NCBI GenBank assembly: GCA_963774955.1
Contig: CAVZGV010000003.1
Coordinates: 386,981-450,980, forward strand
DNA: 64,000 nucleotides
Direction: 5' to 3'
Source: Candidatus Falkowbacteria bacterium
GTDB taxonomy: Bacteria > Patescibacteriota > Patescibacteriia > CAIXNZ01
The translations under genes were made by a program, and so were the position numbers. Of this stretch, positions 4,860-18,631 are shown piece after piece. Below the pieces are notes generated by a model. The model saw nothing but the letters and a program-made list of their open reading frames with translations. It was not told where the DNA came from and did not search any database. Position 1 is the stretch's first letter, and every line of letters begins with the position of its first letter.

Positions 4860-5915
4860 ATGCTCTATAAAGAAAAATACAAACCTCTTAAATTTCCCCG
4901 CGACGAGCAAAAGCATGACCACATTATTGAATGGTGGTATTTTAACGGTAATTTAAAAAGTGAAGACGGCCGTTTGTTTTCCTATATGAACACTTTGTTT
5001 GCGACTAAGCCGAATCTGGTAAAAATTCCGTTTTTGAAAAATATTCCCTTAAAAACTTTGTTTTTCTCCCATTATTTATTAAGTGATAATAATAAACATA
5101 AATTCTGGGAAAAGGTTAACCCTCTATGTTTTTTGGATGCCAATAGTTTTACCAAACCGCTTTTATGGGCTGAATATGATAATTCCTGCTTGATTGAAGA
5201 ATACAAATTGTTTAATTTCCATATTACCAATGATTTTGTGGATCTAAATTTAAAAGCTATAAAAAAGCCTTTACTAATTAATAACAAGGGATTTATTGAC
5301 CTGGGTGTAAAAACAACTTATTATTATTCGTTGCCTCGTTTGCAGACCAGCGGTTTGATTAGGATTAATGATGAGTGGTTGTCAGTTAAAGGCTTAAGTT
5401 GGATGGACCATCAGTGGGCGCAGACTCCAATGACCAAGGATGACAAATGGACCTGGTTTTCTCTGCAATTAAATAATGGCTGGGATATAATGGCGGTAAT
5501 TTACGGTGATCAGGCTAAACTAGCCCATGCCAGCCTTATGGATAAGGGCAATAGGATCAAAACAACAAATAATGTTTTTTTAAAAAATTTACCGATTAAA
5601 TATGCCAGTAAAGAAACCGGCGCCGAATATCAGCTGGGCTATGAAATTTTCTTGCCTGACTGGAATCTCAAAGTTACAGCCAAACCCTATAATAAAGCTC
5701 AGGAAATGGTTTTCGGCACTATAAATTATTGGGAAGGCGGTCTGAAAATCGAAGGTAAAATAGGTGAAAAAAATATCAGCGGCCAGGGATTTTTGGAACT
5801 GGTCGGCAGCCCCATGAAAAAGAGCCTGATGCGGGTATATTTGAATAAATTTGAAAAAAACGGGTTTAAGGGCTGGAAAGCTGAGGTGCTTGACAAAATT
5901 AAAATATATAGGTAA
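4860..5915 (+). CDS. CrtC/AttH-like (hydroxyneurosporene-synthase-type lipocalin fold) protein
   Basis: N-terminal FPRDEQKHDHIIEWWYFNGNL motif is characteristic of the CrtC/AttH family. Assignment rests on this motif only. Confidence 0.45.
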   Translation: MLYKEKYKPLKFPRDEQKHDHIIEWWYFNGNLKSEDGRLFSYMNTLFATKPNLVKIPFLKNIPLKTLFFSHYLLSDNNKHKFWEKVNPLCFLDANSFTKPLLWAEYDNSCLIEEYKLFNFHITNDFVDLNLKAIKKPLLINNKGFIDLGVKTTYYYSLPRLQTSGLIRINDEWLSVKGLSWMDHQWAQTPMTKDDKWTWFSLQLNNGWDIMAVIYGDQAKLAHASLMDKGNRIKTTNNVFLKNLPIKYASKETGAEYQLGYEIFLPDWNLKVTAKPYNKAQEMVFGTINYWEGGLKIEGKIGEKNISGQGFLELVGSPMKKSLMRVYLNKFEKNGFKGWKAEVLDKIKIYR

Positions 5916-5944
5916 GTTAAGTTATTAAAGATTTATCGACTCAT

Positions 5945-7813
5945 ATGGCTATTAACCGCATAAAACTGAATAGCCAGTCACTTAAAAAGGAATTCGCTAA
6001 GGATTACCAGGATTTTTTTTCCAGATCAATGATTATCACCTCGGCTCCGGGGACCATAACCTGGGCTGGTGATTATGCGGTCATGGAGGGCGGATTTGCC
6101 ATTCTGCAAAAAATTCCCCTGAGAGTCTATATCGGTTTGGAACTTAATACTAATGACAAAACTGAAATCGGAGACTTTAAGTATTTTTCAAAGTCCAAGG
6201 GACAGTTTAAAAATTGCGAATTGGAACTGCCGGTAAAAAATAACCTGGTAAGATTTGTCGACCATTACCTGGAAGATGTGGAAAAGGATATTCATCTGAA
6301 AATAAATATTTTAAGTGAAGTATCTCCAGGCAGGGGACTTAATCTCTCGGGTGCCTTATCAGCCAGTTTAGCTTTGGCTTTGGAATTGTATTTCAAAAAA
6401 ATAAAAATCAAGGAGATGGAAAAATGGAAACAGACTGACTTGACCACTTTAACCAGAAAAATCGACCTTAAATTCGATCAGGTCTTTCGTTTGTCATGGA
6501 AGATGAACGCTATCTTTCACGGTAATGTCTCTTCGGGCGGTTCTTCATTTGCCCCATTTATTTATACGCCTTTTCCGGTGGTCTATTTTTCCGAAAAAAG
6601 AGCAGAAATAAACGATAAGGAGAATTTTTCTAATATTAGATTCCCCAAGTATTTGGACGGAGATTGGCGGGGGTATGAGCAGATATTTTATGGGGCCATT
6701 AAGTTTGAAGAATTATTTAATTATAAATCATTACCCAATTGGCCGATTGATTTCGGGGCAATATATTCCGGGGATGAAAGAATGACGGCGACAACACATG
6801 GAACGATCGGCGAAATCAGAGATATCCTGAAGACAACAACTGATTTGGTTAAGGAAGATTTCGCGCCTTATATGGCGAATTTGCCGGTAACTCCCTATTT
6901 TTATAAATTAGCGACCAAACACGGCTGGCGCGGACTGTGGAATATTTACGTGGATCCGACTATTGTTTCCAGTATGGAAGTCTTAAATGCTTTTCGTGAT
7001 TTATTTGAAAAAGGTTTGGCCGATAAATCAATTAAAAATCTTTTTGCCGCTTTGAACAGAATGTCTGCAATTTATCAGGTTTTGGAATTATCTTCGCCGT
7101 TATTCCAATATATTCAGAAATATCTTAATGATGATATGATAAGGTTGGGAGACCCTCACGGCGCGGCTACCAAGCCGTTGGGGTGCGGTAAAAAGGGGGA
7201 TTTGTTATTTGTTTTGCCTTATCATGGACTCCGCGATCAGATTGATAGGGTCATTAACGAGATGATTGAAGAAACCAAGGAACATATGTATCTGGATTAT
7301 GCTTCATGGTATGACGGTATTGAAGAGGAAGGGGCTAAACTCGAGCAATTTCTGGAAGGCAAAATATATTCTGAGTTTATTTCACGTGGGGCTGTTTTGA
7401 TCAAACATTTAAATTATAAAGGATTTATTCATAAAGATTTGTATACTCAGGAGGAGTTTCATAAAATGATACCCGACGCGGATTTACTGATGGATGAAAT
7501 CGACGGTAAAATTTATATTAAAGGTACACAACTGACATCTAAAGAATTGCATTCCGCAACGGCTACTATAAGTATTCTTAAGGAGCTAATTAATAAGCCG
7601 GGTGAAGCCGTGGCCAATGCTACTTTACCAATCAGTAGTTATACTCAGGACAGAAATGAACTGCAAAGCAAGATTATTACGCCCCTATGCAAAATTATCC
7701 AAAAGAATACTGGCCGTAAACTGTCATTTAAAATTAACGGCGGTATCACTAATTTCACCGTTAAATTGGGTAGCACAGGTGTGGATATCCTTTTGGTAAA
7801 AAGAATTTTTTAA
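5945..7813 (+). CDS. GHMP-kinase-family-like protein, unusually long (622 aa)
   Basis: N-terminal SAPGTITWAGDYAVMEGG resembles the GHMP APG…GEH motif. SPGRGLNLSGALSASLALAL resembles the PxGSGLGSSAA phosphate-binding loop. The C-terminal ~300 aa are unassigned. Confidence 0.45.
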   Translation: MAINRIKLNSQSLKKEFAKDYQDFFSRSMIITSAPGTITWAGDYAVMEGGFAILQKIPLRVYIGLELNTNDKTEIGDFKYFSKSKGQFKNCELELPVKNNLVRFVDHYLEDVEKDIHLKINILSEVSPGRGLNLSGALSASLALALELYFKKIKIKEMEKWKQTDLTTLTRKIDLKFDQVFRLSWKMNAIFHGNVSSGGSSFAPFIYTPFPVVYFSEKRAEINDKENFSNIRFPKYLDGDWRGYEQIFYGAIKFEELFNYKSLPNWPIDFGAIYSGDERMTATTHGTIGEIRDILKTTTDLVKEDFAPYMANLPVTPYFYKLATKHGWRGLWNIYVDPTIVSSMEVLNAFRDLFEKGLADKSIKNLFAALNRMSAIYQVLELSSPLFQYIQKYLNDDMIRLGDPHGAATKPLGCGKKGDLLFVLPYHGLRDQIDRVINEMIEETKEHMYLDYASWYDGIEEEGAKLEQFLEGKIYSEFISRGAVLIKHLNYKGFIHKDLYTQEEFHKMIPDADLLMDEIDGKIYIKGTQLTSKELHSATATISILKELINKPGEAVANATLPISSYTQDRNELQSKIITPLCKIIQKNTGRKLSFKINGGITNFTVKLGSTGVDILLVKRIF

Positions 7814-7840
7814 ACGTAAAATATAATAAGTTTTTGAAAA

Positions 7841-7866
7841 AACCGGGTTTTGTCCCGGTTTTTTCT
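7841..7866 (+). terminator. rho-independent terminator
   Basis: AACCGGGTTTTGTCCCGGTTTTTT. Confidence 0.65.
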
Positions 7867-8169
7867 TTTTGTGTCCTTAGACTGTATGGCTCCTGATGAT
7901 TTATGATCAAGGCAGAGAATCAAAAATAGATCTTTACAACCAAATATATTAAGAAGTTTGCAATCAGCCAGTTTAACCTTAAATTACTTTTTATCGGTCT
8001 ACTTATTATCATTTTCTTTGTTTTGATTTTAAAGGTCAATATTATATCGACCTATATGAACATACATAAATAAAATCAACAAAGGATATAAATAGATTGA
8101 TAACAATTAAGATAAACCGGCTGTTTCCAGATTTTTTGCTGATAAACAATGTAACAAGGAGGTCTTGTC

Positions 8170-9228: not shown

Positions 9229-9870
9229 ATGACTGAAAAAGAACTGCTGGAGAAACTGGCCACTTTTTCGTTGATTGAAGAATTGAAGTACCTTTTTATT
9301 TACGGCAGCAACAGCGATCTGGAAGCCGATGACAAGGATATTGATTTACTGGCTGTTGTTAATAATCCCAGAGGATATCTTTATTACAAGGTTGAAAAGA
9401 CCGATCAGGTTGATTTAATCATTGTAAATGAGGATTACTTCCAGCGGGCTATCAGCAACTTCGAACCATTGGTGCTAGAACCGTTGCTTAAAGGCCGACT
9501 TTTGCGAAGTTTTGCTTCAGTAGAAGTGGATTTCAGACAAAAGATATGGCAGCAGGAATTTCACAAGAAAAATCTGGTTTATCTGACCAGCTTTGCCTTT
9601 ACCCTCCTGTGCTGGGCTTTTGAACGCTGGGACAAGAAGAACTATGAAGAATGCCTGATGAACCTGACCTATGTTTTTAGCTATGCAGCCATGGCTGAAA
9701 ATTTAAGCAAATACAAAGAACCGGTTTTTTACTGGCAACTTTTGGCTCATCCTGATTATGGCTGTCTGAGAAAAATCAGGGCGAGTTTGAAACTTAAACA
9801 GTTTGATCAGACAGAAGAATTGCTAAACGAAACTTTTGCCTGGTTAAAGGGTCAGCTGAGTAAATTATAA
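9229..9870 (+). CDS. nucleotidyltransferase-fold (MNT-like) domain protein
   Basis: RBS AAGGAGG precedes ATG 9229 (MTEKELL…). YGSNSDLEADDKDIDLLAVV fits the minimal nucleotidyltransferase GS…[DE]x[DE] motif. A helical C-terminal half follows. Confidence 0.5.
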   Translation: MTEKELLEKLATFSLIEELKYLFIYGSNSDLEADDKDIDLLAVVNNPRGYLYYKVEKTDQVDLIIVNEDYFQRAISNFEPLVLEPLLKGRLLRSFASVEVDFRQKIWQQEFHKKNLVYLTSFAFTLLCWAFERWDKKNYEECLMNLTYVFSYAAMAENLSKYKEPVFYWQLLAHPDYGCLRKIRASLKLKQFDQTEELLNETFAWLKGQLSKL

Positions 9871-9905
9871 GTTTAAGCCGTTCCGACATGTCGGAACGGC
9901 TTTTT
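9871..9905 (+). terminator. rho-independent terminator
   Basis: GCCGTTCCGACATGTCGGAACGGC followed by TTTTT. Immediately followed by the TTTTTGTCC x2 motif. Confidence 0.75.
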
Positions 9906-9976
9906 GTCCTTTTTTGTCCTTAGTCAGTTGCAGGGTAATTAAATTATGATAAAAGTATTATTATTAATCTAGTTTT

Positions 9977-12142
9977 ATGAAAAAATTAATTAGAGTTACA
10001 TTTTTTCTGGGGATCCTGGTGATTTTAGGTTTTAGTAGTCACAGTTCCTTTGCCGCTCAAAGCAATTTAACCTCCAGGGTTAAAGGCTATATTGTACTCA
10101 GCGTTGAAGAACACGGGGAAGCATATTATGTTGATCCCGTAACTTTAAAAGCGTATTACATGCAAAGTCCTGACAAGGCTTTTGAAATAATGAGAACTTT
10201 CGGCTTGGGGATTACTGATGAAAATTTGGCAAAAATTCCTTTGGCTGGAACTAGTCAAACAGGGGATTGGCAATTACGTAATAAATTAGCCGGGCGGATA
10301 TTATTACAGGTGCAAAAAAACGGGGAAGCCTGGTATGTCTACCCTGGCGATTTAAAAAGATATTATTTGGGTAGCCCGTTTGGAGCCTTTAATTTAATGA
10401 GAGCAAAAGGTTTGGGTATTTCCCACACTGATTTGTCTGATTTAACTGTTTGGAATGTTACAAATCCCATTAAATATAGTAACTCAGTGGAGACCATGAA
10501 AATGCTGACCGCCAAGGCAATTGAAAGTAGATATATAAGCTATACTTTGTCAGGTGACTATGAGAAATATGCTGAAAATAAATATTATGCCTATGGCGGA
10601 CTTGATTTAACATTTTATTGTCCACCACCACAAAGCTCTTTTCCTAATGCTTATTTGATTACTGGATATGGCGCTAGTGTGCCGTATGAGTGGGAACCAA
10701 TCAATCCCGTAGCGACCTATTGGCAATCGGTAAACAAGCTTTCTATGGTAGCCTATTCTCAGGATTTTACCATGGTCTGTCAAAAAAATGATGGTAGTTT
10801 GTATAAGAAAACTATTACTATCACCGAAAAAACAAGACCGCTTAGCACTCTTACTCAGTCAAAAGAAAATATTTGGGATTTTACCAAATGGCATGATGAA
10901 TCATCCGGCCCAGGTTTGGACAGCGGCTTAGCAGAGACTTATTATGACGGTACAGGAAAAAAAGTCATTAAATTAAATTCCATGAAAGGTGGTAATTATT
11001 ATATGGAAAAGTCATATTATTTAACGGTTGATAACAGTAGTGACCTGAATAATATTGTCAGTTGGGATTGGAAACAAGATTCGATTGATTCTCCTTACGG
11101 TTATGTCGGGGTGTATATTCAGTTTATGAATGCCCAAAAATTTACTAACCGCAGTACAGAATCATCTTATGTTCTTGGTACATATGATCTGTTTCGCCAT
11201 ACCGGTGATTTCTACAAATATAGCTGTGACAATCGCTATGCCGAATCAACTTTAGGCCCCAGTAAATATAACTGCAATGAGGAAATCGGAGCCAAAGACA
11301 GCTGGCAAAATGTGCAGTTAAATCTTCAGAATATCCTAAACAATAAGCTTTATGGGGTAGCCAAAGATCAGATTAAAGCTGTAAAAATAAAAATTGTATC
11401 ATACAATAATGCAGGCAGCGGTGCTGTGGCGTATTGGCGTGATTTTCAGATTAATTCAACCTCAGCCGGGACTTTGCAATCTGCTGACTATTTCAAGTTA
11501 AGCCCATATAATTTTAGCGTTAAAAAAGGCGGCGATCTTATTACTACCGACGGCGAGTATGTTAGCCCGTGGGATGGTAACTATTCATTTGGTTATAACG
11601 GTGATTATCTTTTCAAAGGAGTTAATTCAAAGCCTGCGGAAGGGTGTAATATACGTAAGTTTATTTATAATTTTCAGGATTTTGAAAATAAAACCGTGGA
11701 AATTACTTTTAAACGAAGTGCTTATGGGGCTTTGGATTTTTCTTTACAAAACGAGGCCGGTCAGTTTGTAGATTTTGACAGCGATTCAAATGATGTGCCG
11801 TCTAATCTGGTTCGGGCCTGTAATAATTATTTTAAATGTGATTATACCTGTAATGATTATGCCGGCGGCTGGATAGGCAGTGAATATGACTGGGGTCAGC
11901 TGACCAATGACAATCAGTGGCATACTTTATCAATCAGTAAATTTCCGGATAAATTTATTTTTAACCTCGATAATGGTAAAAAGATTAAAGAGGTTAGCTC
12001 AGTCTTCGGCTGTAATTTGGCCGGTAATGTCAGGGGGATGGATTATTCCGGCCAAGTCAGTTTAATGGTTAGCGGCTGGAGCTGTAAATGGAAAAGCGAT
12101 GATTTGAATTATGAAGTCAAGGAAATTAAAATAAGCCGATAA
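9977..12142 (+). CDS. large secreted protein with two ~50-aa 'ILLQVxxxGEAWYVYPxxxxRYYL…GLGI' repeats
   Basis: Signal peptide MKKLIRVTFFLGILVILGFSSHSSFAAQ. Repeats at ~aa 35-90 and 105-160. The same repeat pair occurs in ORF 29443-30405. Confidence 0.6.
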   Translation: MKKLIRVTFFLGILVILGFSSHSSFAAQSNLTSRVKGYIVLSVEEHGEAYYVDPVTLKAYYMQSPDKAFEIMRTFGLGITDENLAKIPLAGTSQTGDWQLRNKLAGRILLQVQKNGEAWYVYPGDLKRYYLGSPFGAFNLMRAKGLGISHTDLSDLTVWNVTNPIKYSNSVETMKMLTAKAIESRYISYTLSGDYEKYAENKYYAYGGLDLTFYCPPPQSSFPNAYLITGYGASVPYEWEPINPVATYWQSVNKLSMVAYSQDFTMVCQKNDGSLYKKTITITEKTRPLSTLTQSKENIWDFTKWHDESSGPGLDSGLAETYYDGTGKKVIKLNSMKGGNYYMEKSYYLTVDNSSDLNNIVSWDWKQDSIDSPYGYVGVYIQFMNAQKFTNRSTESSYVLGTYDLFRHTGDFYKYSCDNRYAESTLGPSKYNCNEEIGAKDSWQNVQLNLQNILNNKLYGVAKDQIKAVKIKIVSYNNAGSGAVAYWRDFQINSTSAGTLQSADYFKLSPYNFSVKKGGDLITTDGEYVSPWDGNYSFGYNGDYLFKGVNSKPAEGCNIRKFIYNFQDFENKTVEITFKRSAYGALDFSLQNEAGQFVDFDSDSNDVPSNLVRACNNYFKCDYTCNDYAGGWIGSEYDWGQLTNDNQWHTLSISKFPDKFIFNLDNGKKIKEVSSVFGCNLAGNVRGMDYSGQVSLMVSGWSCKWKSDDLNYEVKEIKISR

Positions 12143-12538: not shown

Positions 12539-12739
12539 TCATTTGATGGTGATTTCAGTCTGGCAATTGGGGCAGGTAATTGTTGCCCCTTTGCTGACAA
12601 CCAAAATGTTGTTTGTGGTCAGTGCATGTTTTTGATCTTCGTTTAAATCTGCTTCAAGCACATGGAACCTGATTTCGGTTTTGCACCGGCAGATAAACGA
12701 TTCGACTATTAACGGCGCAGGCTGGTCATTCGTATCCAT
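12539..12739 (-). CDS. small zinc-ribbon-like protein
   Basis: 66 aa with CRC…CPNC. Lies 17 nt downstream of the 12757-13722 gene on the same strand, so probably operonic. Confidence 0.45.
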   Translation of the reverse strand: MDTNDQPAPLIVESFICRCKTEIRFHVLEADLNEDQKHALTTNNILVVSKGATITCPNCQTEITIK

Positions 12740-12756: not shown

Positions 12757-13722
12757 TTAGTTTTGCTTAAGAAAGGTTTCAATGCGGTCAAAAAGTTGTT
12801 CTTGATCGAACTGGCTGCTTCCATTACGAGGGGAACCGCCAATGGAATCAGAGCCGTCCCAACGGTCAGTGTTGTCCGGGGCAATGCCTTCAAGTTCGTT
12901 GAGATAGTTAAAAAGTGTTTTGGGATCAAAGTCCGGAGCGACCAGATTGGAACGCTTGCCAATGACAAAGCGATGTTTAGCTTTGGAGTTTTGACCCAGA
13001 TAAATGACATAACAATTGATGCCGTCTTTGAACAGACCGTAACGAGCCTGGCGTCCGATTTCTTTGACCATGGCCCAGCCAGTTCCTGATTTGATCAGTT
13101 CATAGCGCATGTCAGCACCGATTGTTTGGCCCTGACCAATGGCATATTTCATGATGTTGTCCATCAGCGCCTGAAGCAGAATCAGCATTTCGGATGCAGA
13201 CAGTACGGCCAGCTTGCCTTCGGTGCGCAACTGGTCATATGGCTGAAAGATCCAGAAAATCGATTCCATGACATGCAGGTTGGGGAAGTATGGATATGAT
13301 CCGGCTGTGGCATCCAGGTTGCCTTCGACATTGACCAGCGCGTTAAGCGGTGCGCCGGCAGAATGGCTGGGGTTTAAAAGCAGCCAGATGGCCAGGGCAG
13401 TATCCTGGTCAATGTCATTGACCCAGATATGGCCTTTGATCTGGCCCTTGTCCCGGAAATTATCCAGTAAGCCCAGGTTTAGCGCGACCTGAACTTGGCC
13501 GCAGGTGGCTCGGGCAGCCAGACGCAGAATGCCGTCATGATGGTCAAAGTTGTATTTGCCGGCACGAGTTTCTGTAAACGGACCTCCGTTACAAAAACCG
13601 TCCAGGGCAATTGAATTTTTAGGGAACTTATTACTTAAAAATTCTTCCCGGGTCACAACTTTGCCAGGGATGATGTGAACTTCAAAAGTTCCGCTGTTAA
13701 ATATGATTTCATTCTCCATTCT
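12757..13722 (-). CDS. hypothetical protein (321 aa)
   Basis: RBS AAGGAGGAAG precedes ATG at 13722 (MENEIIF…). The upstream extension in the ORF track lacks an RBS. No confident family; the FDHHDG motif was noted but the other DHH-family motifs are absent. Confidence 0.5.
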   Translation of the reverse strand, partial: RMENEIIFNSGTFEVHIIPGKVVTREEFLSNKFPKNSIALDGFCNGGPFTETRAGKYNFDHHDGILRLAARATCGQVQVALNLGLLDNFRDKGQIKGHIWVNDIDQDTALAIWLLLNPSHSAGAPLNALVNVEGNLDATAGSYPYFPNLHVMESIFWIFQPYDQLRTEGKLAVLSASEMLILLQALMDNIMKYAIGQGQTIGADMRYELIKSGTGWAMVKEIGRQARYGLFKDGINCYVIYLGQNSKAKHRFVIGKRSNLVAPDFDPKTLFNYLNELEGIAPDNTDRWDGSDSIGGSPRNGSSQFDQEQLFDRIETFLKQN

Positions 13723-13774: not shown

Positions 13775-13850
13775 AATTTTGTCAAGTAAGATTAATCCTG
13801 AAATTTTAACTAATTTCAGCTTGACAAAATTGGGTAGTTTTGCTTAAATA
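13775..13850. promoter_or_regulatory. divergent promoter region with inverted TTGACA-containing repeats
   Basis: AATTTTGTCAAG … CTTGACAAAATT inverted repeat. Each copy supplies a -35 box for one of the divergent genes (13722 minus strand, 13906 plus strand). Confidence 0.4.
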
Positions 13851-13905
13851 TATTGATGGATAGAACCTTTAAAATTAGAGGAAAATAAAGATGAAGGAGG
13901 AAGAA

Positions 13906-14937
13906 ATGTCCAAGAAAATTCAGGTACCCACTACTGATTATTACGCCTTGTTGGGCGTACATGCCTGCGCCAGAGAGGAAGTTATTCAGGCGGCTCAAAA
14001 AGCACTGCAGAAAATTTATCATCCTGATAATATTAAAACCGGTGACGAAAAAATGTCACAACAGATCAATGAAGCTGCTACGGTGCTTTTGACTCCCAAG
14101 AAGCGTTCCGAATATGATCGCGAGCGCCTCAAAGCAGCTGAACAGCCGATTGTCGGCTATCGCTTGCTTAAAGAAATCGCCGAAGGCGGGTTTGGGACGA
14201 CATATCTGGCTGAACATCTTTTAACCGGAGAATATGTCTGCATCAAACACTGTCATCGCATTTCTGCTGCGGATAATGAGATTATTCTGCAGGAAGCCAA
14301 GGCTATCTGGAATCTGCGTCATTTTGCGATTCCGATTGTCCGTGATCTAATCAAAATGGCCGACGGCAGCCTGGCTCTGGTTATGTCCTATATTGAAGGA
14401 CCGACATTGGAACAGGTTGTCAAAAAGAAGGGCGCGCTGCATCCTGAAAATGTCTGCTGGATTACCCAGCGGATTTTGAATGCTCTGAAGTACATGCATT
14501 TTCACGGGGTGATTCACGGCGATGTCAAGCCGGCGAATACGATTGTTCAGCCCAAAGAGCACCTGATTACCTTGGTTGATTATGGCCTGGCCATGATCCG
14601 GCCGCGAGTTGATTCTGAAAGTCTGGGGTATACGCCTTACTTTGCTCCTCCGGAGCAGGAGAGAGGCGAGACCCTGCTGCCGGAATCTGATTTCTATGCG
14701 CTGGGTATGACCATGATTTTCGCCTTAAGCGGGGATATTGATCTGGTCGTAAAAAAGGAAGTGCCGGAAGACACGCCTGAGCCACTGTGCAAGTTTATCA
14801 GTAAACTGATTGTGCGCGATGTGCTGGGCCGTCCCAATTGGCAAAAGCTCGACCTCTTTGAAGAAATTCAAAAGGTCAGGGAACAATGTTTTGGACGTAA
14901 AGAGTCCAATCTTAAAGACTTGTTTGACGACAAATGA
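13906..14937 (+). CDS. J-domain (DnaJ N-terminal) fused to a Ser/Thr protein kinase domain
   Basis: RBS GAAGGAGGAAG precedes ATG 13906. J domain DYYALLGV…KIYHPDN (HPD motif). Kinase Gly loop EGGFGTTY, VCIKH (Lys), catalytic loop HGDVKPANT, DYG (DFG-like), PYFAPPE (APE). Confidence 0.75.
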   Translation: MSKKIQVPTTDYYALLGVHACAREEVIQAAQKALQKIYHPDNIKTGDEKMSQQINEAATVLLTPKKRSEYDRERLKAAEQPIVGYRLLKEIAEGGFGTTYLAEHLLTGEYVCIKHCHRISAADNEIILQEAKAIWNLRHFAIPIVRDLIKMADGSLALVMSYIEGPTLEQVVKKKGALHPENVCWITQRILNALKYMHFHGVIHGDVKPANTIVQPKEHLITLVDYGLAMIRPRVDSESLGYTPYFAPPEQERGETLLPESDFYALGMTMIFALSGDIDLVVKKEVPEDTPEPLCKFISKLIVRDVLGRPNWQKLDLFEEIQKVREQCFGRKESNLKDLFDDK

Positions 14938-14965
14938 ACAAGTAGAAAAAGAAAGGAGCAAGAAA

Positions 14966-15970
14966 ATGTCTGAAAGCGGTGATTACAGTCCCGGTGTATG
15001 GAAAGGTCATGATTTTAATAGCGCTCGCAAGCGTTATGATAATCATGTCGGCCGCAGTTATGCTGATGCTAAGGTAGAAAAAAAGACTCAAAAGGACATG
15101 ATTCCCAAGTCAATGGAAACCAAGAGTCAATCGCCTTTGGTAATCGTCTGCGATCAGACCGGTTCCATGGGCGACTGGCCGGCAACCATGTTTTCCAAAT
15201 TGCCTTATCTGGAACTGGAAGGCCAGGAATATCTGGGTAAGGACATGGAAATCAGCTGGGCCGCCATTGGCGATGCCCACAATAACGAGGATTATCCGCT
15301 TCAGGGCCGTCCCTTTACCAAGGGGACGACGCTGAAAACCGAACTTGAAAAATTAGTCATCGAAGGCAAGGGCGGGGGGCAGTATCATGAAACCTATGAA
15401 CTGGCAGCCTTGTATTATGCCCGCAATGTCAGCATGCCCAAAGCCATTCGTCCGATAATCATATTTATCGGTGATGAGATGCCCTATGACACAGTAACGG
15501 AAGACGATGCCCAAACCTATTCATTGGTCAAGACCGAAAAAAGTCTTTCAGTTAAAGAAATCTTCCAGGAACTGCAGGCCAAATTCGCAGTTTACGTCAT
15601 TCTCAAGCCATATAATCTTGATAGCGGCGATAATGACAGCATGAATCAGCAGGTTTACAAAACCTGGCTCGAATTGGTAGATGGTGATCATATCGCTGTC
15701 TTGCCTGATCCTCAACGCGTCGTGGACATCATATTCGGCATCCTCGCCAAGGAAACCGGCCGAGTCGAATACTTCCGCGAGGAAATCGAAGGTCGGCAAA
15801 AACCCGACCAGATAAAGGTGGCTTATAAGGCGTTAACCACCATCCATACGGAGACGGATGACAAGGGCAAAAAGCAACCGGCGCTACCTGAACACAAATC
15901 AGTGATGCGCAAGTCAACCGGCGGCAAGAAAAGCAAAAAGCTCCTGGTCAGTGACAGTGATGACGAGTAA
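14966..15970 (+). CDS. vWA (von Willebrand factor A-like) domain protein with a Lys/Asp-rich C-terminal tail
   Basis: RBS AAAGGAG precedes ATG 14966 (MSESGDY…). MIDAS-like LVIVCDQTGSMGD, then further downstream T and D residues. The ORF-track 5' extension overlaps the kinase gene and is rejected. Confidence 0.55.
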   Translation: MSESGDYSPGVWKGHDFNSARKRYDNHVGRSYADAKVEKKTQKDMIPKSMETKSQSPLVIVCDQTGSMGDWPATMFSKLPYLELEGQEYLGKDMEISWAAIGDAHNNEDYPLQGRPFTKGTTLKTELEKLVIEGKGGGQYHETYELAALYYARNVSMPKAIRPIIIFIGDEMPYDTVTEDDAQTYSLVKTEKSLSVKEIFQELQAKFAVYVILKPYNLDSGDNDSMNQQVYKTWLELVDGDHIAVLPDPQRVVDIIFGILAKETGRVEYFREEIEGRQKPDQIKVAYKALTTIHTETDDKGKKQPALPEHKSVMRKSTGGKKSKKLLVSDSDDE

Positions 15971-15984
15971 GGAGGCGACTGACA

Positions 15985-16944
15985 ATGTTTTGGCAAAGAA
16001 AAAAGCTTAAACAAAAATCAATCCCTCTGACCCTGATGGCTACGCTCTGGCCGAGCTTTCCGCATTTTAGCCGCTTTGCGCAGGATGATAGACTGGAGGC
16101 AATCAGGCTCAATAGTGCCATGATCACCAACGCCCAGCTTGATCAGGAACTGGATTTGGCTTTAAAGCCTGAAATAACTGTGCCTTTGTACTTTGATGTC
16201 AAAGGTCGGCAGCTGAGGGTGACAGAAGTCCATCTTAATGACAACTATCTGGATCTGACGTTGAATCATCCGATCAAAGTCAAGACGCCGACCATGGTGT
16301 TGTTCAAAGCCGGTGAAGACAGGTGTTTACTCAAAGAGGTCAGAGAAGACGGACGTAGACTGATTTTCGACGGCGGGCCTGACTTCATGGTCATTGCCGG
16401 AGAATCAATTCATATCCGTGATTCAAGCCTGCAGGTTTTTGGCTCGGTCTTTACGGATTCGGAAAAAGCCAAGATCGACAAGGTCTACAACGCCGGTTTT
16501 CGCAAGTTTTTTCTGTCTTATGTTCAGGCTCAGCGTGATATCGACGAATTCATGGAATTGGTCGGTTCTGACGTTGAGATTATGCTCAAGATAGAAAATA
16601 AGCAGGGCCTGGCTTTCGTAGCCAACGGCTTCAAGAAAAAGGAAAACCACAGACTGGTGGCAGCCCGGGGTGACATGTACGTGGAGATTGATCGTCCCCA
16701 TCAGATCATGGCCGCCCTGAAGCTGATCATTGCCAAAGATCCGCAGGCCAATGTGGGGTCGCGGATGCTTTTATCCATCGTGCATGAACCAGTGCCGTCC
16801 TGCGCTGACTTTCTGGAGTTGGCCTGGCTTTATGACATCGGTTATCGATCCATGATGCTCTGCGATGAGCTTTGCCTGAAAGAAGATTTGCTGGCAACAG
16901 CAGTCAATGCCTGGCACAGTTTCAAAGAAGAGTATACAAGTTAA
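15985..16944 (+). CDS. pyruvate-kinase-like TIM-barrel (A-domain only) protein
   Basis: RBS GGAGG. Matches three PK A-domain signatures: DVKGRQLRV (cf. DTKGPEIR), KIENKQGL (cf. KIENQEG), VAARGDMYVEI…AALKLII (cf. MVARGDLGVEIP…QK.II). Lacks the B (cap) and C domains of canonical PK. Confidence 0.5.
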   Translation: MFWQRKKLKQKSIPLTLMATLWPSFPHFSRFAQDDRLEAIRLNSAMITNAQLDQELDLALKPEITVPLYFDVKGRQLRVTEVHLNDNYLDLTLNHPIKVKTPTMVLFKAGEDRCLLKEVREDGRRLIFDGGPDFMVIAGESIHIRDSSLQVFGSVFTDSEKAKIDKVYNAGFRKFFLSYVQAQRDIDEFMELVGSDVEIMLKIENKQGLAFVANGFKKKENHRLVAARGDMYVEIDRPHQIMAALKLIIAKDPQANVGSRMLLSIVHEPVPSCADFLELAWLYDIGYRSMMLCDELCLKEDLLATAVNAWHSFKEEYTS

Positions 16945-16952
16945 CCAAACAA

Positions 16953-16974
16953 GGGAGCAGCAATGCTCCCTTTT
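16953..16974 (+). terminator. rho-independent terminator
   Basis: GGGAGCAGCAATGCTCCC followed by TTTT. Confidence 0.7.
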
Positions 16975-16989
16975 ATAATAGGTTTAATC

Positions 16990-17018
16990 TTGACAGCACG
17001 GGTTATTTTTGTTATAAT
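16990..17018 (+). promoter_or_regulatory. consensus sigma70 promoter
   Basis: TTGACA, 17-nt spacer, TATAAT. Both hexamers are perfect consensus. About 58 nt upstream of the 17077 start. Confidence 0.7.
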
Positions 17019-17076: not shown

Positions 17077-17886
17077 ATGAGGAAATTTTGGTTGTTTGCA
17101 GTCATCGTCTTTATTTCTTTTTCAATGGTAATGAGCTGCGCTCAAGAGCCTGAAGAAAAGGACAAAATCAAAGTTACTCTGCCAGACAAACATTCTGATT
17201 CACCCGACTGGCAAAGCATCTATGAAGACAATATCAGATCAATCCCACAAATAGTCATTGAACAATGTTTTTTGAGCACTCATTATTGCCAGGAGTATTC
17301 CCAGGGCACAGCCTTTGTGGTTGATCAGGGAGTAGTGGCTACCAATTACCATCTGGCAGAATATTATTCTCTGACTGAGAAATCCAGTTCAGAGACGATT
17401 TTCTATCAGCTTTATCTTCGCTATCCTGCAACTAACACTCGCGAGGACAATTACTTTTTACCGGACAGATATTATGTCACAGGTTCTTATGGGTTAATTA
17501 ATCGGGACATGGCTCTGCTTCAAGTCAATACCTTGGGTAATGTTCCGGTTAAAATCACTGCTGCTGACTTTTGGTCATTGCAGACGGGCGACAAGATATT
17601 TATTGTCAGTTATCCCGGCAGCAGGGAATTTGTCGGGTCTGAAGGTAAAATATACGATATTTTTCGTAATGATGGCCTGGCTGACTGGATCGCCAATGAC
17701 ACCAAACTGATTGAGCACACAGCCGACACCTATTACGGCAGCAGCGGCGGACCAATTTTTAATGCCAAAGGTGAAGTCATTGGTATTCATTTTGCCGGTT
17801 TTGGCGACGGTTCGCCAACATCCCTGGCACTTTCGATTACCTATCTGCAAGGGATAGATTTCGAAAATGTACCTTTCGATTTTTGA
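17077..17886 (+). CDS. secreted/lipoprotein trypsin-like (S1 family) serine protease
   Basis: Signal peptide ending in Cys (…FSMVMSCAQ). Catalytic triad context GTAFVV…ATNYHL (His), DMALLQV (Asp), YYGSSGGPIF (Ser). Confidence 0.7.
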   Translation: MRKFWLFAVIVFISFSMVMSCAQEPEEKDKIKVTLPDKHSDSPDWQSIYEDNIRSIPQIVIEQCFLSTHYCQEYSQGTAFVVDQGVVATNYHLAEYYSLTEKSSSETIFYQLYLRYPATNTREDNYFLPDRYYVTGSYGLINRDMALLQVNTLGNVPVKITAADFWSLQTGDKIFIVSYPGSREFVGSEGKIYDIFRNDGLADWIANDTKLIEHTADTYYGSSGGPIFNAKGEVIGIHFAGFGDGSPTSLALSITYLQGIDFENVPFDF

Positions 17887-18004: not shown

Positions 18005-18631
18005 TTAATTTTGATTTATTTTTAGTTTGTTTTTTGTCCAGGTACGTTTCCAATGGTCATCTGTTTGTACATGACCTTGCCGTACCCATTTGGCAATTGA
18101 TACATTGAATTCAGACAGTGGGAATGAATCAACCAGTCTGACAACATATCCTTCAATCTGATTTCCAAAATTTGACTTGGGTGGCAAATCGAACTTTTGA
18201 GGAAAAATTCCTTCATATAAAATCGGCACATAGGCCAATCCGAGCTGACAACAGAGAGTTATCGTCTCTTCAACTGACAGGACCATTTTTTTGTTTAAAT
18301 CAATGGCAGAAAACACGAAATACCATTGAGTTAATTGGTCATAAAAAATTGAATGTTTGGCATAAAGATATTCTCCGGAAATTTGGATATTAGCCGGAAT
18401 GTGATATCTAATTTGAGCATGCAAAGACTTGATAAAGCTTTGAGACTGATGGTTCATGTTGTTCTGGCTACGAGCATGGATCCTATCTCTATATAAAGAG
18501 ATATTTTCGCCGTCAAGTTTTTCCATGATGACAACATTTTTACCATTAAAACATGCTTTGGATTTTAATACTTTGTCATCACGAGTAATGCCTGGGGAAT
18601 TGGGCAGATGGTATATTTTGGGCCATTTCAT
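18005..18631 (-). CDS. ATP-dependent RNA ligase (Rnl-type nucleotidyltransferase)
   Basis: Motif I KxDG in VIMEKLDGENISLY. Downstream nucleotidyltransferase motifs: ISGEYLY, EGYVVRL (motif IV-like), KWVR (motif V-like). Terminator hairpin GATCGCGCTAAGTTGTGCGATC plus T-run on the minus strand at ~17980-18004. Confidence 0.6.
   Translation of the reverse strand: MKWPKIYHLPNSPGITRDDKVLKSKACFNGKNVVIMEKLDGENISLYRDRIHARSQNNMNHQSQSFIKSLHAQIRYHIPANIQISGEYLYAKHSIFYDQLTQWYFVFSAIDLNKKMVLSVEETITLCCQLGLAYVPILYEGIFPQKFDLPPKSNFGNQIEGYVVRLVDSFPLSEFNVSIAKWVRQGHVQTDDHWKRTWTKNKLKINQN

Follow-up and report, generated by a model that had tools for sequence, protein, structure and literature searches.

A three-gene cluster encoding a J-domain–kinase fusion, a vWA protein and a pyruvate-kinase-like protein recurs in CPR bacteria and DPANN archaea

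The TerY-P triad combines the von Willebrand factor A (vWA) protein TerY with a Ser/Thr kinase and a PP2C phosphatase, which reverses the switch; it was reportedly described by Anantharaman, Iyer and Aravind in 2012. PrkA(YeaG)–YeaH(DUF444)–SpoVR(YcgB) is a further conserved triad that includes a Ser kinase along with a vWA-like protein, and CbbQ–CbbO and NorQ–NorD are examples of MoxR–vWA pairs. Eukaryotic GAK/auxilin-2 carries a J domain and a kinase in the reverse of the order described below, together with extra domains. In the archaellum regulatory network of Sulfolobus (ArnA/ArnB–ArnC/ArnD), the C-terminal region of ArnB, a vWA protein with an intact MIDAS (metal-ion-dependent adhesion site), is phosphorylated by the Hanks kinase ArnC, which changes the partnerships of ArnB (PMC6509490). 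An operon with vWA, Ser/Thr protein kinase, FHA and PP2C genes has been reported from Deinococcus radiodurans (bioRxiv 10.64898/2026.01.23.701218). Here we describe a three-gene cluster, the triad, in a 64,000-nt stretch of a Candidatus Falkowbacteria genome (contig CAVZGV010000003.1, positions 386,981 to 450,980 of the forward strand; "the window" hereafter). It encodes a J-domain/Hanks-type kinase fusion (J-kinase), a vWA protein with a putative MIDAS and a paralogue of pyruvate kinase (PK), the PK-like protein. We classify the triad as a variant of the kinase–vWA signalling theme with two unprecedented attachments, a J domain and a PK devoid of its C-terminal domain. Neither such an operon nor a prokaryotic J-domain–kinase fusion was described in the literature that we searched, including papers on J-domain proteins, vWA conflict systems and FtsZ-like proteins, a search whose coverage was incomplete and leaves absence unproven.

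The genes and domains of the triad are:

13906-14937, plus strand: J-kinase, a J-domain/Hanks-type Ser/Thr kinase fusion of 343 aa
13936-14118, plus strand: J domain of the J-kinase, residues 11-71, with HPD at 39-41 (Pfam DnaJ, 5.6e-12)
14158-14736, plus strand: kinase catalytic core of the J-kinase, residues 85-277 (Pfam Pkinase envelope, 5.8e-31)
14966-15970, plus strand: vWA/MIDAS protein of 334 aa, cytoplasmic
15985-16944, plus strand: PK-like protein of 319 aa, a pyruvate kinase paralogue

Homologues of these genes are found mostly in ultra-small Patescibacteria (candidate phyla radiation, CPR) and in Woese-, Pace- and Nanoarchaeota (DPANN). Homologues of each triad protein number about 900-1,100 and share 50-65% identity with it, the range that also separates the bacterial from the archaeal sequences; with 1,029 database homologues of the J-kinase, the fusion is not rare in bacteria, as the first-pass annotation of the window had supposed. 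A scan of 185,579 species-representative genomes yielded 62 loci, to which IMG/VR added 19; 7 loci were cut by contig ends. There are 72 informative, non-redundant loci, which belong to CPR bacteria, DPANN archaea, three Spirochaetales metagenome-assembled genomes (MAGs) and a phage record of 485 kb; the triad genes are adjacent in 68 of them (64 collinear in the order J-kinase, vWA, PK-like; 4 with the kinase divergent but adjoining). No other gene family is common across the triad loci. The 68/72 adjacency, which spans two domains of life, bears out the earlier expectations that the three genes are co-conserved in relatives and that they form a functional unit rather than a glycolysis locus. 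We infer that the triad is a self-contained, ancient three-gene operon encoding a protein complex or a regulatory circuit.

The GC content of the triad lies 2-6 points above the flanks in nearly all loci and follows that of its host over a range of 0.31-0.61; the latter suggests that the triad has long been resident and strongly constrained. Recent horizontal transfer, considered for the window in view of its raised regional GC content (44-48% compared with 36-40%), was rejected given that the same excess and the same tracking of host GC are found elsewhere. In a neighbour-joining tree of the concatenated proteins, calculated without support values, the DPANN sequences form one clade nested among those of CPR bacteria, the three Spirochaetales MAGs stand beside the DPANN clade and the phage copy diverges most. 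The tree suggests that the module is old, that it has seldom passed between domains, with a single CPR–DPANN transfer as the candidate, and that its retention has been patchy. Six triads from bins labelled Gammaproteobacteria or Methanosarcinales (L004, L006, L038, L059, L027 and L064) group with CPR or DPANN sequences, and these contigs resemble DPANN in GC content and neighbours; the bins are probably mislabelled.

The J-kinase matches Pfam DnaJ with 46 bits (cutoff 27.8) over profile positions 1-63 of 63, and Pfam Pkinase with 108 bits (cutoff 31.7), confirming the fusion of a J domain to a Hanks-type kinase that had been read from the sequence. Within the HPD tripeptide, P40 is present in 39/39 homologues and H39 and D41 in 37/39 each, archaeal homologues included. 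The kinase residues K114, E130, D206, K208, N211, D225, G227, P249 and E250 are invariant in 39/39 sequences, and the catalytic loop reads H-G-D in 38 of the 39, with G205 invariant, which makes this a non-RD kinase; the HRD loop that it lacks would imply control by activation-loop phosphorylation. Judged by these residues, the J-kinase is a catalytically complete Hanks kinase. Its core has bacterial StkP and PknB as the nearest solved kinases, and it ends in a conserved C-terminal tail, FGRxxSxMKPI (R331, S334, K337). The DNAJB1-PRKACA chimera (PDB 4wb7) aligns to residues 11-272 of the J-kinase, covering both domains in the same order.

The middle protein has the Rossmann-like alpha/beta fold of vWA domains, as had been proposed, and belongs to no Pfam family. 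A conserved N-terminal segment (residues 1-55, with E3 and D6 invariant) precedes the vWA core (about residues 58-245), which is followed by three helices and a basic, disordered tail (296-334) with an invariant S312 and a terminal KxLL. The putative MIDAS is of a variant form, DxTGS instead of DxSxS (D63-x-T65-G-S67); GGG136-138, E142 and D170-E171 are likewise invariant among the homologues. We found no signal peptide, no Pfam match at E<=0.1 and no match in NCBIfam, PADLOC or the PDB sequences. VWA_CoxE is weakly matched by 3 of 40 homologues (best E 0.004), which places the protein outside the curated vWA families; its sole family match is phrog_2971, a phage family of unknown function, and ArnB is among its structural matches. 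The family extends beyond the triad: when 1.84 billion representative proteins were searched with a profile, 1,504 clusters (at 50% identity) were found at E<=1e-3. Fusions to a C-terminal U-box (E3-ligase type) or a NUDIX domain occur in some distant relatives (among P0490, P0505, P0479, P0493 and P0502); a weak match to DUF444 (YeaH-like; 4.3e-5) was found for one distant relative. Tandem vWA duplicates occur at two triad loci (L045 and L058). In one Spirochaetales MAG (L049, 4110-5777) Lys/Thr-rich repeats (TAGTKKTT...) lengthen the vWA protein at its C-terminus by about 250 residues, an exaggerated form of the basic tail found in all members of the family.

The third protein consists of the A-domain TIM barrel of PK and, at about residues 78-150 (nt 16216-16434), a shortened version of the B/cap domain. 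The first-pass annotation had described it as lacking both the cap and the C-terminal domain. The cap is retained in shortened form, because a beta-rich insert occupies its site, and is about 30 residues shorter than in canonical PKs. The C-terminal regulatory domain is indeed missing: a search gave no PK_C match, and the protein stops at residue 319, directly past the last barrel helix. Its AlphaFold2 model has a pLDDT of 92, and a BFVD fold search with this model returned low-TM noise only. The match to the Pfam PK barrel (40 bits) is above the Pfam threshold. The curated PK models are far from being reached, with 35.5 bits for TIGR01064 (cutoff 306.4) and 36.5 for PRK05826 (cutoff 432). Aligned to PykF, the protein keeps the equivalents of R32, N34, D66, K68, R73, K220, E222, D246 and E314, with T278 as Ser, and these positions are invariant in 40/40 homologues; the PykF sequence used here is provisional, and an alignment to yeast PK independently confirms the Lys, Glu and Asp residues, whose retention had been in question. 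Besides T278→S, the protein differs from canonical PKs in S312→C, G313→D and E71→Q with an adjacent Arg, and at the K+ site. It is probably a PK-type enzyme, with predicted phosphoenolpyruvate (PEP)/ADP activity. All three members of the triad look functional. The window holds no second PK, kinase or vWA gene.

We then compared the genes next to the triad. The nearest neighbours vary between loci, and many are housekeeping genes such as those for EF-G, tRNA synthetases and sigma factors. Among 127 of them we counted PP2C 5 times, PhoU 5, EF-G 3-4, cytidylyltransferase 3 and PurA 2. The PP2C phosphatase is thus a joint commonest neighbour, at 5 of about 72 loci; the five PP2Cs are mutually related, always directly adjoin the triad and, at L041 and L043, appear in an operon with the kinase. 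Together with the intact kinase, the adjoining PP2Cs fit the signalling role that had been suggested for the cluster. TerB genes lie near the triad in a single Spirochaetales locus. The census contained no FHA or zinc-ribbon partner, and no AAA+ gene was found in the cluster or among the 25 commonest neighbour families.

The triad resembles TerY-P in that a cytoplasmic vWA protein is coupled genetically to a Hanks-type kinase, PP2C adjoins in five loci and TerB genes lie nearby in one Spirochaetales locus. The TerY-like partnership that had been proposed therefore holds as an analogy and fails as a matter of sequence membership: the vWA protein lies outside the Pfam VWA families, there is no PP2C or ter gene in the 64-kb window, PP2C is missing from most other loci, the kinase bears a J domain, and a third member, a PK-like enzyme, is obligatory. 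From the Arn network the triad differs in having no FHA or zinc-ribbon partner and no link to motility genes, in its additional J domain and PK-like enzyme, and in the C-terminal region of the vWA protein, where three helices and a disordered basic tail stand in place of the beta-sandwich and four-helix bundle of ArnB. The triad resembles PrkA–YeaH–SpoVR as a conserved three-gene unit, and shares with it the weak DUF444 match of one distant vWA relative; PrkA, however, is of the AAA+ type and not a Hanks kinase, the third gene there is SpoVR and not PK-like, and a J domain is absent. The likeness to MoxR–vWA systems, in which a vWA adaptor with a MIDAS links a chaperone powered by ATP to a target enzyme (PMC7159879), is one of analogy only: the triad has no MoxR gene, and its proposed chaperone is Hsp70, reached through the J domain of the kinase. 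DNAJB1-PRKACA has a J domain covalently joined to an active Ser/Thr kinase in the identical domain order, but is a somatic oncogenic fusion, whereas the J-kinase occurs naturally in prokaryotes and has a PknB/StkP-like core. The PK-like protein shares with PykF and with 8iw2, a PK chain from Entamoeba histolytica, the TIM-barrel A domain, the B domain and the equivalents of the catalytic residues, and is set apart from canonical PKs by the loss of the C-terminal allosteric/tetramerisation domain and by always being encoded with a kinase and a vWA protein.

By analogy with these systems, we propose that the triad is a kinase–vWA phospho-switch that would control a PK-type phosphotransferase in trans via recruitment of Hsp70, a reading to which we assign a probability of about 45%. 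We infer that the three products form a complex, in which the PK-like paralogue would be the catalytic output and transfer phosphate from PEP to ADP or another nucleoside diphosphate (NDP). Having lost the C-terminal domain, it would be controlled by the vWA protein and the J-kinase; we propose control in trans because this is the domain used for allosteric control in canonical PKs. The vWA protein would serve as an adaptor or regulatory subunit whose MIDAS binds an acidic residue of a partner. The Hanks kinase would supply the signal, its likely targets being S312 in the vWA tail and S334 in its own tail, and the J domain would bring in the Hsp70 (DnaK) of the cell as a motor that remodels the complex or releases it. 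The adjoining, dedicated PP2C of some lineages may reverse the switch.

Several findings weigh against this proposal. No Hsp70/DnaK-like gene lies in the window, 64 kb of a 565-kb contig, or in the 86 loci examined, and the PP2C that would reset the switch is, as said above, missing from the window and from most loci. Two loci (L039 and L055) keep the vWA and PK-like genes without the kinase despite having room for it, which implies that the kinase is dispensable in some lineages. The PK-like protein could also act on a substrate other than PEP; it departs from canonical PKs in S312→C, G313→D and E71→Q and at the K+ site. Finally, a recurring link to PurA-like genes, at L022, L051, L055 and in Bixzunavirus, hints at a role in nucleotide metabolism that the switch model leaves unexplained.

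One alternative is that the PK-like gene is a reduced housekeeping PK of glycolysis and that the kinase and vWA genes are its dedicated regulators or chance neighbours. The complete set of catalytic residues and the retained A+B fold agree with this, as does 8iw2, whose 321 residues align to the PK-like protein over 291; some members of the family already bear the name "pyruvate kinase" in some sources. Among complete Nanobdellota genomes, the KEGG assignment of PK (K00873) occurs patchily and enolase is nearly universal in Woesearchaeales (bioRxiv 10.64898/2026.05.13.725050), a gap that a non-canonical PK could fill. Against a housekeeping role stand the roughly 62 loci in 185,579 species-representative genomes, far too patchy for such an enzyme of CPR and DPANN, the low TIGR01064 score (35.5 against 306), the presence of the triad in the phage record and in Spirochaetales MAGs, and the PK calls reported from Pacearchaeales, a group without a glycolytic route to PEP (bioRxiv 10.64898/2026.05.13.725050). 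Chance neighbourhood is excluded by the co-conservation of the triad, and we consider the housekeeping explanation as a whole rather unlikely. The patchy "pyruvate kinase" calls that this preprint reports for Nanobdellota include lineages without upstream glycolysis; some of these calls may be the PK-like gene. A role in anti-phage defence or abortive infection, with the kinase or vWA protein as sensor and the PK-like enzyme or phosphorylation of a host target as effector, appears improbable to us. It is suggested by the patchy phyletic distribution, by PADLOC matches of the kinase domain to PD-T4-6 (5.7e-37) and mad6, by the known vWA-centred conflict systems (PMC7159879) and by a phage-like RNA ligase and a trypsin-like protease, the latter matching the RT-protease and LmuA models, in the flanks of the window. 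These PADLOC matches, however, are confined to the generic core of the kinase, PADLOC gives no match for the vWA or the PK-like protein, and NCBIfam cutoffs are far off (MAD6 of MADS 100.7 against 460, PglW of BREX 40.6 against 990), with the partner genes absent. The 127 neighbours include two DNA methyltransferases and a few other PADLOC matches with two members each (for example MzaA and E1-E2/ThiF-type), the rest being variable genes such as EF-G and PurA; no defence family recurs, and the defence or stress-defence role that had been suggested at first has no support from the gene context. The triad also has no effector-type domain (nuclease, TIR, Sir2 or pore-former), and its unusually conserved proteins, host-like GC content and largely domain-congruent tree are unlike fast-moving defence islands.

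The PurA-like genes invite another explanation, namely that the triad serves nucleotide supply or salvage, with the PK-like protein acting as a PEP-driven NDP kinase or related phosphotransferase gated by the kinase–vWA pair in nucleotide-scavenging organisms and phages. Divergent PurA-like genes, with GDGGKG or GDAGKG instead of GDEGKG, lie directly upstream of the triad at L022 (3379-4770) and L051 (3506-4858), and at L055 (3078-7698) a PurA-like gene takes the place of the kinase beside a second PK-like paralogue. In Bixzunavirus mycobacteriophages a kinase homologue and a vWA homologue are followed by a PurA-like gene; a polynucleotide kinase is encoded close by, and there is no PK-like gene. 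In Mycobacterium phage HyRo (L067, NC_028869.1, 2814-6533) the order is kinase homologue, vWA homologue (31% identity), an 88-aa open reading frame and an adenylosuccinate-synthetase-like gene, and the vWA match is common to about 200 mycobacteriophage records. The NUDIX fusion of a distant vWA relative and the cytidylyltransferase-like and Thg1 genes among the neighbours fit the same explanation. The associations are few, however, at 3-4 cellular loci and in one phage genus, and may be local synteny, and the kinase homologue of the phages carries HGA instead of HGD and is possibly an inactive pseudokinase. On balance we regard a role in nucleotide supply as doubtful.

The complete phage copy is found on the 485-kb record LR745208.1 (L066, "uncultured phage"), where the triad occupies 4932-7895 at 40-49% identity to the window and a gene for a Thg1-like tRNA-His guanylyltransferase lies 1.5 kb downstream (9398-10291). 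Only this record carries a phage genome label. A viral origin of the triad, considered for the 19 IMG/VR contigs, was rejected: membership in IMG/VR is not evidence of viral origin here because several of these contigs carry EF-G and other cellular genes beside the triad.

The triad bears on regulation in CPR bacteria and DPANN archaea, which make up a large share of microbial diversity and whose metabolic regulation is almost unknown; few other candidates exist for a regulatory device that they share, and the triad is kept at 50-65% identity in both domains. The PK-like gene may be counted as a glycolytic PK where it is something else, a risk that arises because it passes the Pfam PK threshold and because some pipelines name it "pyruvate kinase". 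As a natural prokaryotic J-domain–kinase fusion, the J-kinase offers a tractable system for the coupling of Hsp70 to a kinase, the same question that is posed by the DNAJB1-PRKACA oncoprotein. The vWA proteins, with about 1,500 clusters at 50% identity and phage, U-box- or NUDIX-fused relatives, form a family absent from Pfam. A bolder version of the model, which we think rather unlikely, would make the vWA/kinase/Hsp70-switched PK-type enzyme a previously unrecognised type of enzyme regulation and a principal signal-gated source of ATP or other nucleoside triphosphates from PEP in host-dependent CPR and DPANN cells, and may explain part of the "orphan pyruvate kinase" calls in genomes without glycolysis.

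The layout of the triad in the window and of the sites around it was read from the following elements:

13775-13831, no strand assigned: divergent control region with a perfect 12-nt inverted repeat (repeat search and sequence reading)
13821-13849, plus strand: promoter-like site of the triad, TTGACA at 13821-13826, a 17-nt spacer ending in TGc and TTAAAT at 13844-13849 (inferred from sequence)
16951-16972, no strand assigned: 9-bp GC-rich hairpin, AAGGGAGCA-GCAA-TGCTCCCTT, 7 nt past the stop codon of the PK-like gene
16990-17018, plus strand: perfect sigma-70 promoter of the next gene (promoter scan)

The three adjacent open reading frames were found at the coordinates first annotated, with gaps of 28 and 14 nt in place of the 29 and 15 nt given before. 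Each gap contains an AAGGAG(G) ribosome-binding site, and this arrangement suggests co-translation of the triad genes. For the J-kinase, the start at 13906 is preferred over 13891 because AAGGAGG lies 5 nt upstream of it and the homologues begin there. The triad looks like one transcription unit because it combines an upstream promoter-like site, tight spacing, a downstream hairpin and a separate promoter for the next gene.

Upstream, the arms of the inverted repeat (AATTTTGTCAAG at 13775-13786 and CTTGACAAAATT at 13820-13831) are perfect and give each strand a TTGACA -35 element; between them lies an 8-nt palindrome, CTGAAATT/AATTTCAG. The shared divergent region with its inverted TTGACA repeat is thus as first described, and its status as a promoter does not hold to the same degree, the triad site being only consensus-like. 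The consensus promoter scan did not report this plus-strand site because position 2 of its -10 hexamer is T. We rejected the repeat as a dedicated operator because a second copy of CTTGACAAAATT occurs at 5889, upstream of an unrelated gene; the 12-mer is probably a generic extended -35 element of this genome. Downstream, the hairpin probably marks the end of the transcription unit. The claim that the cluster has its own terminator stands for the 9-bp hairpin and not for a plus-strand terminator, since the T tract on that strand is short and the terminator scan accepted the minus strand only.

Four genes flank the triad in the window:

12539-12739, minus strand: 66-aa zinc-ribbon-like protein with two CxxC pairs and sub-threshold matches only
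12757-13722, minus strand: 321-aa protein with an NFDHHDG motif, divergent from the triad
17077-17886, plus strand: trypsin-like protease with a signal peptide and its own sigma-70 promoter, matching the RT-protease and LmuA models
18005-18631, minus strand: convergent RNA ligase with strong phage-family matches (phrog_34045, 4e-57)

All four were considered as members of the module and rejected, as tblastn found none of them in the 85 other loci. The two genes that share the divergent region with the triad, those for the 321-aa and zinc-ribbon proteins, are accordingly no part of the conserved unit, contrary to what the shared region had suggested. For the 321-aa protein, no relatives turned up in Pfam, PADLOC, NCBIfam or the PDB. 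No Rfam element lies in or near the cluster, and the whole window gave 0 Rfam family matches and 0 tRNA genes. Nearly all long open reading frames of the window are on the plus strand, GC skew is positive throughout and many of the large frames have no Pfam domain. Among them, 9977-12142 (plus strand) encodes a 721-aa secreted protein, without a Pfam match, that carries two N-terminal copies of a motif of about 60 aa (GYIVLSVEEHGEAYYVDP... and GRILLQVQKNGEAWYVYP...).

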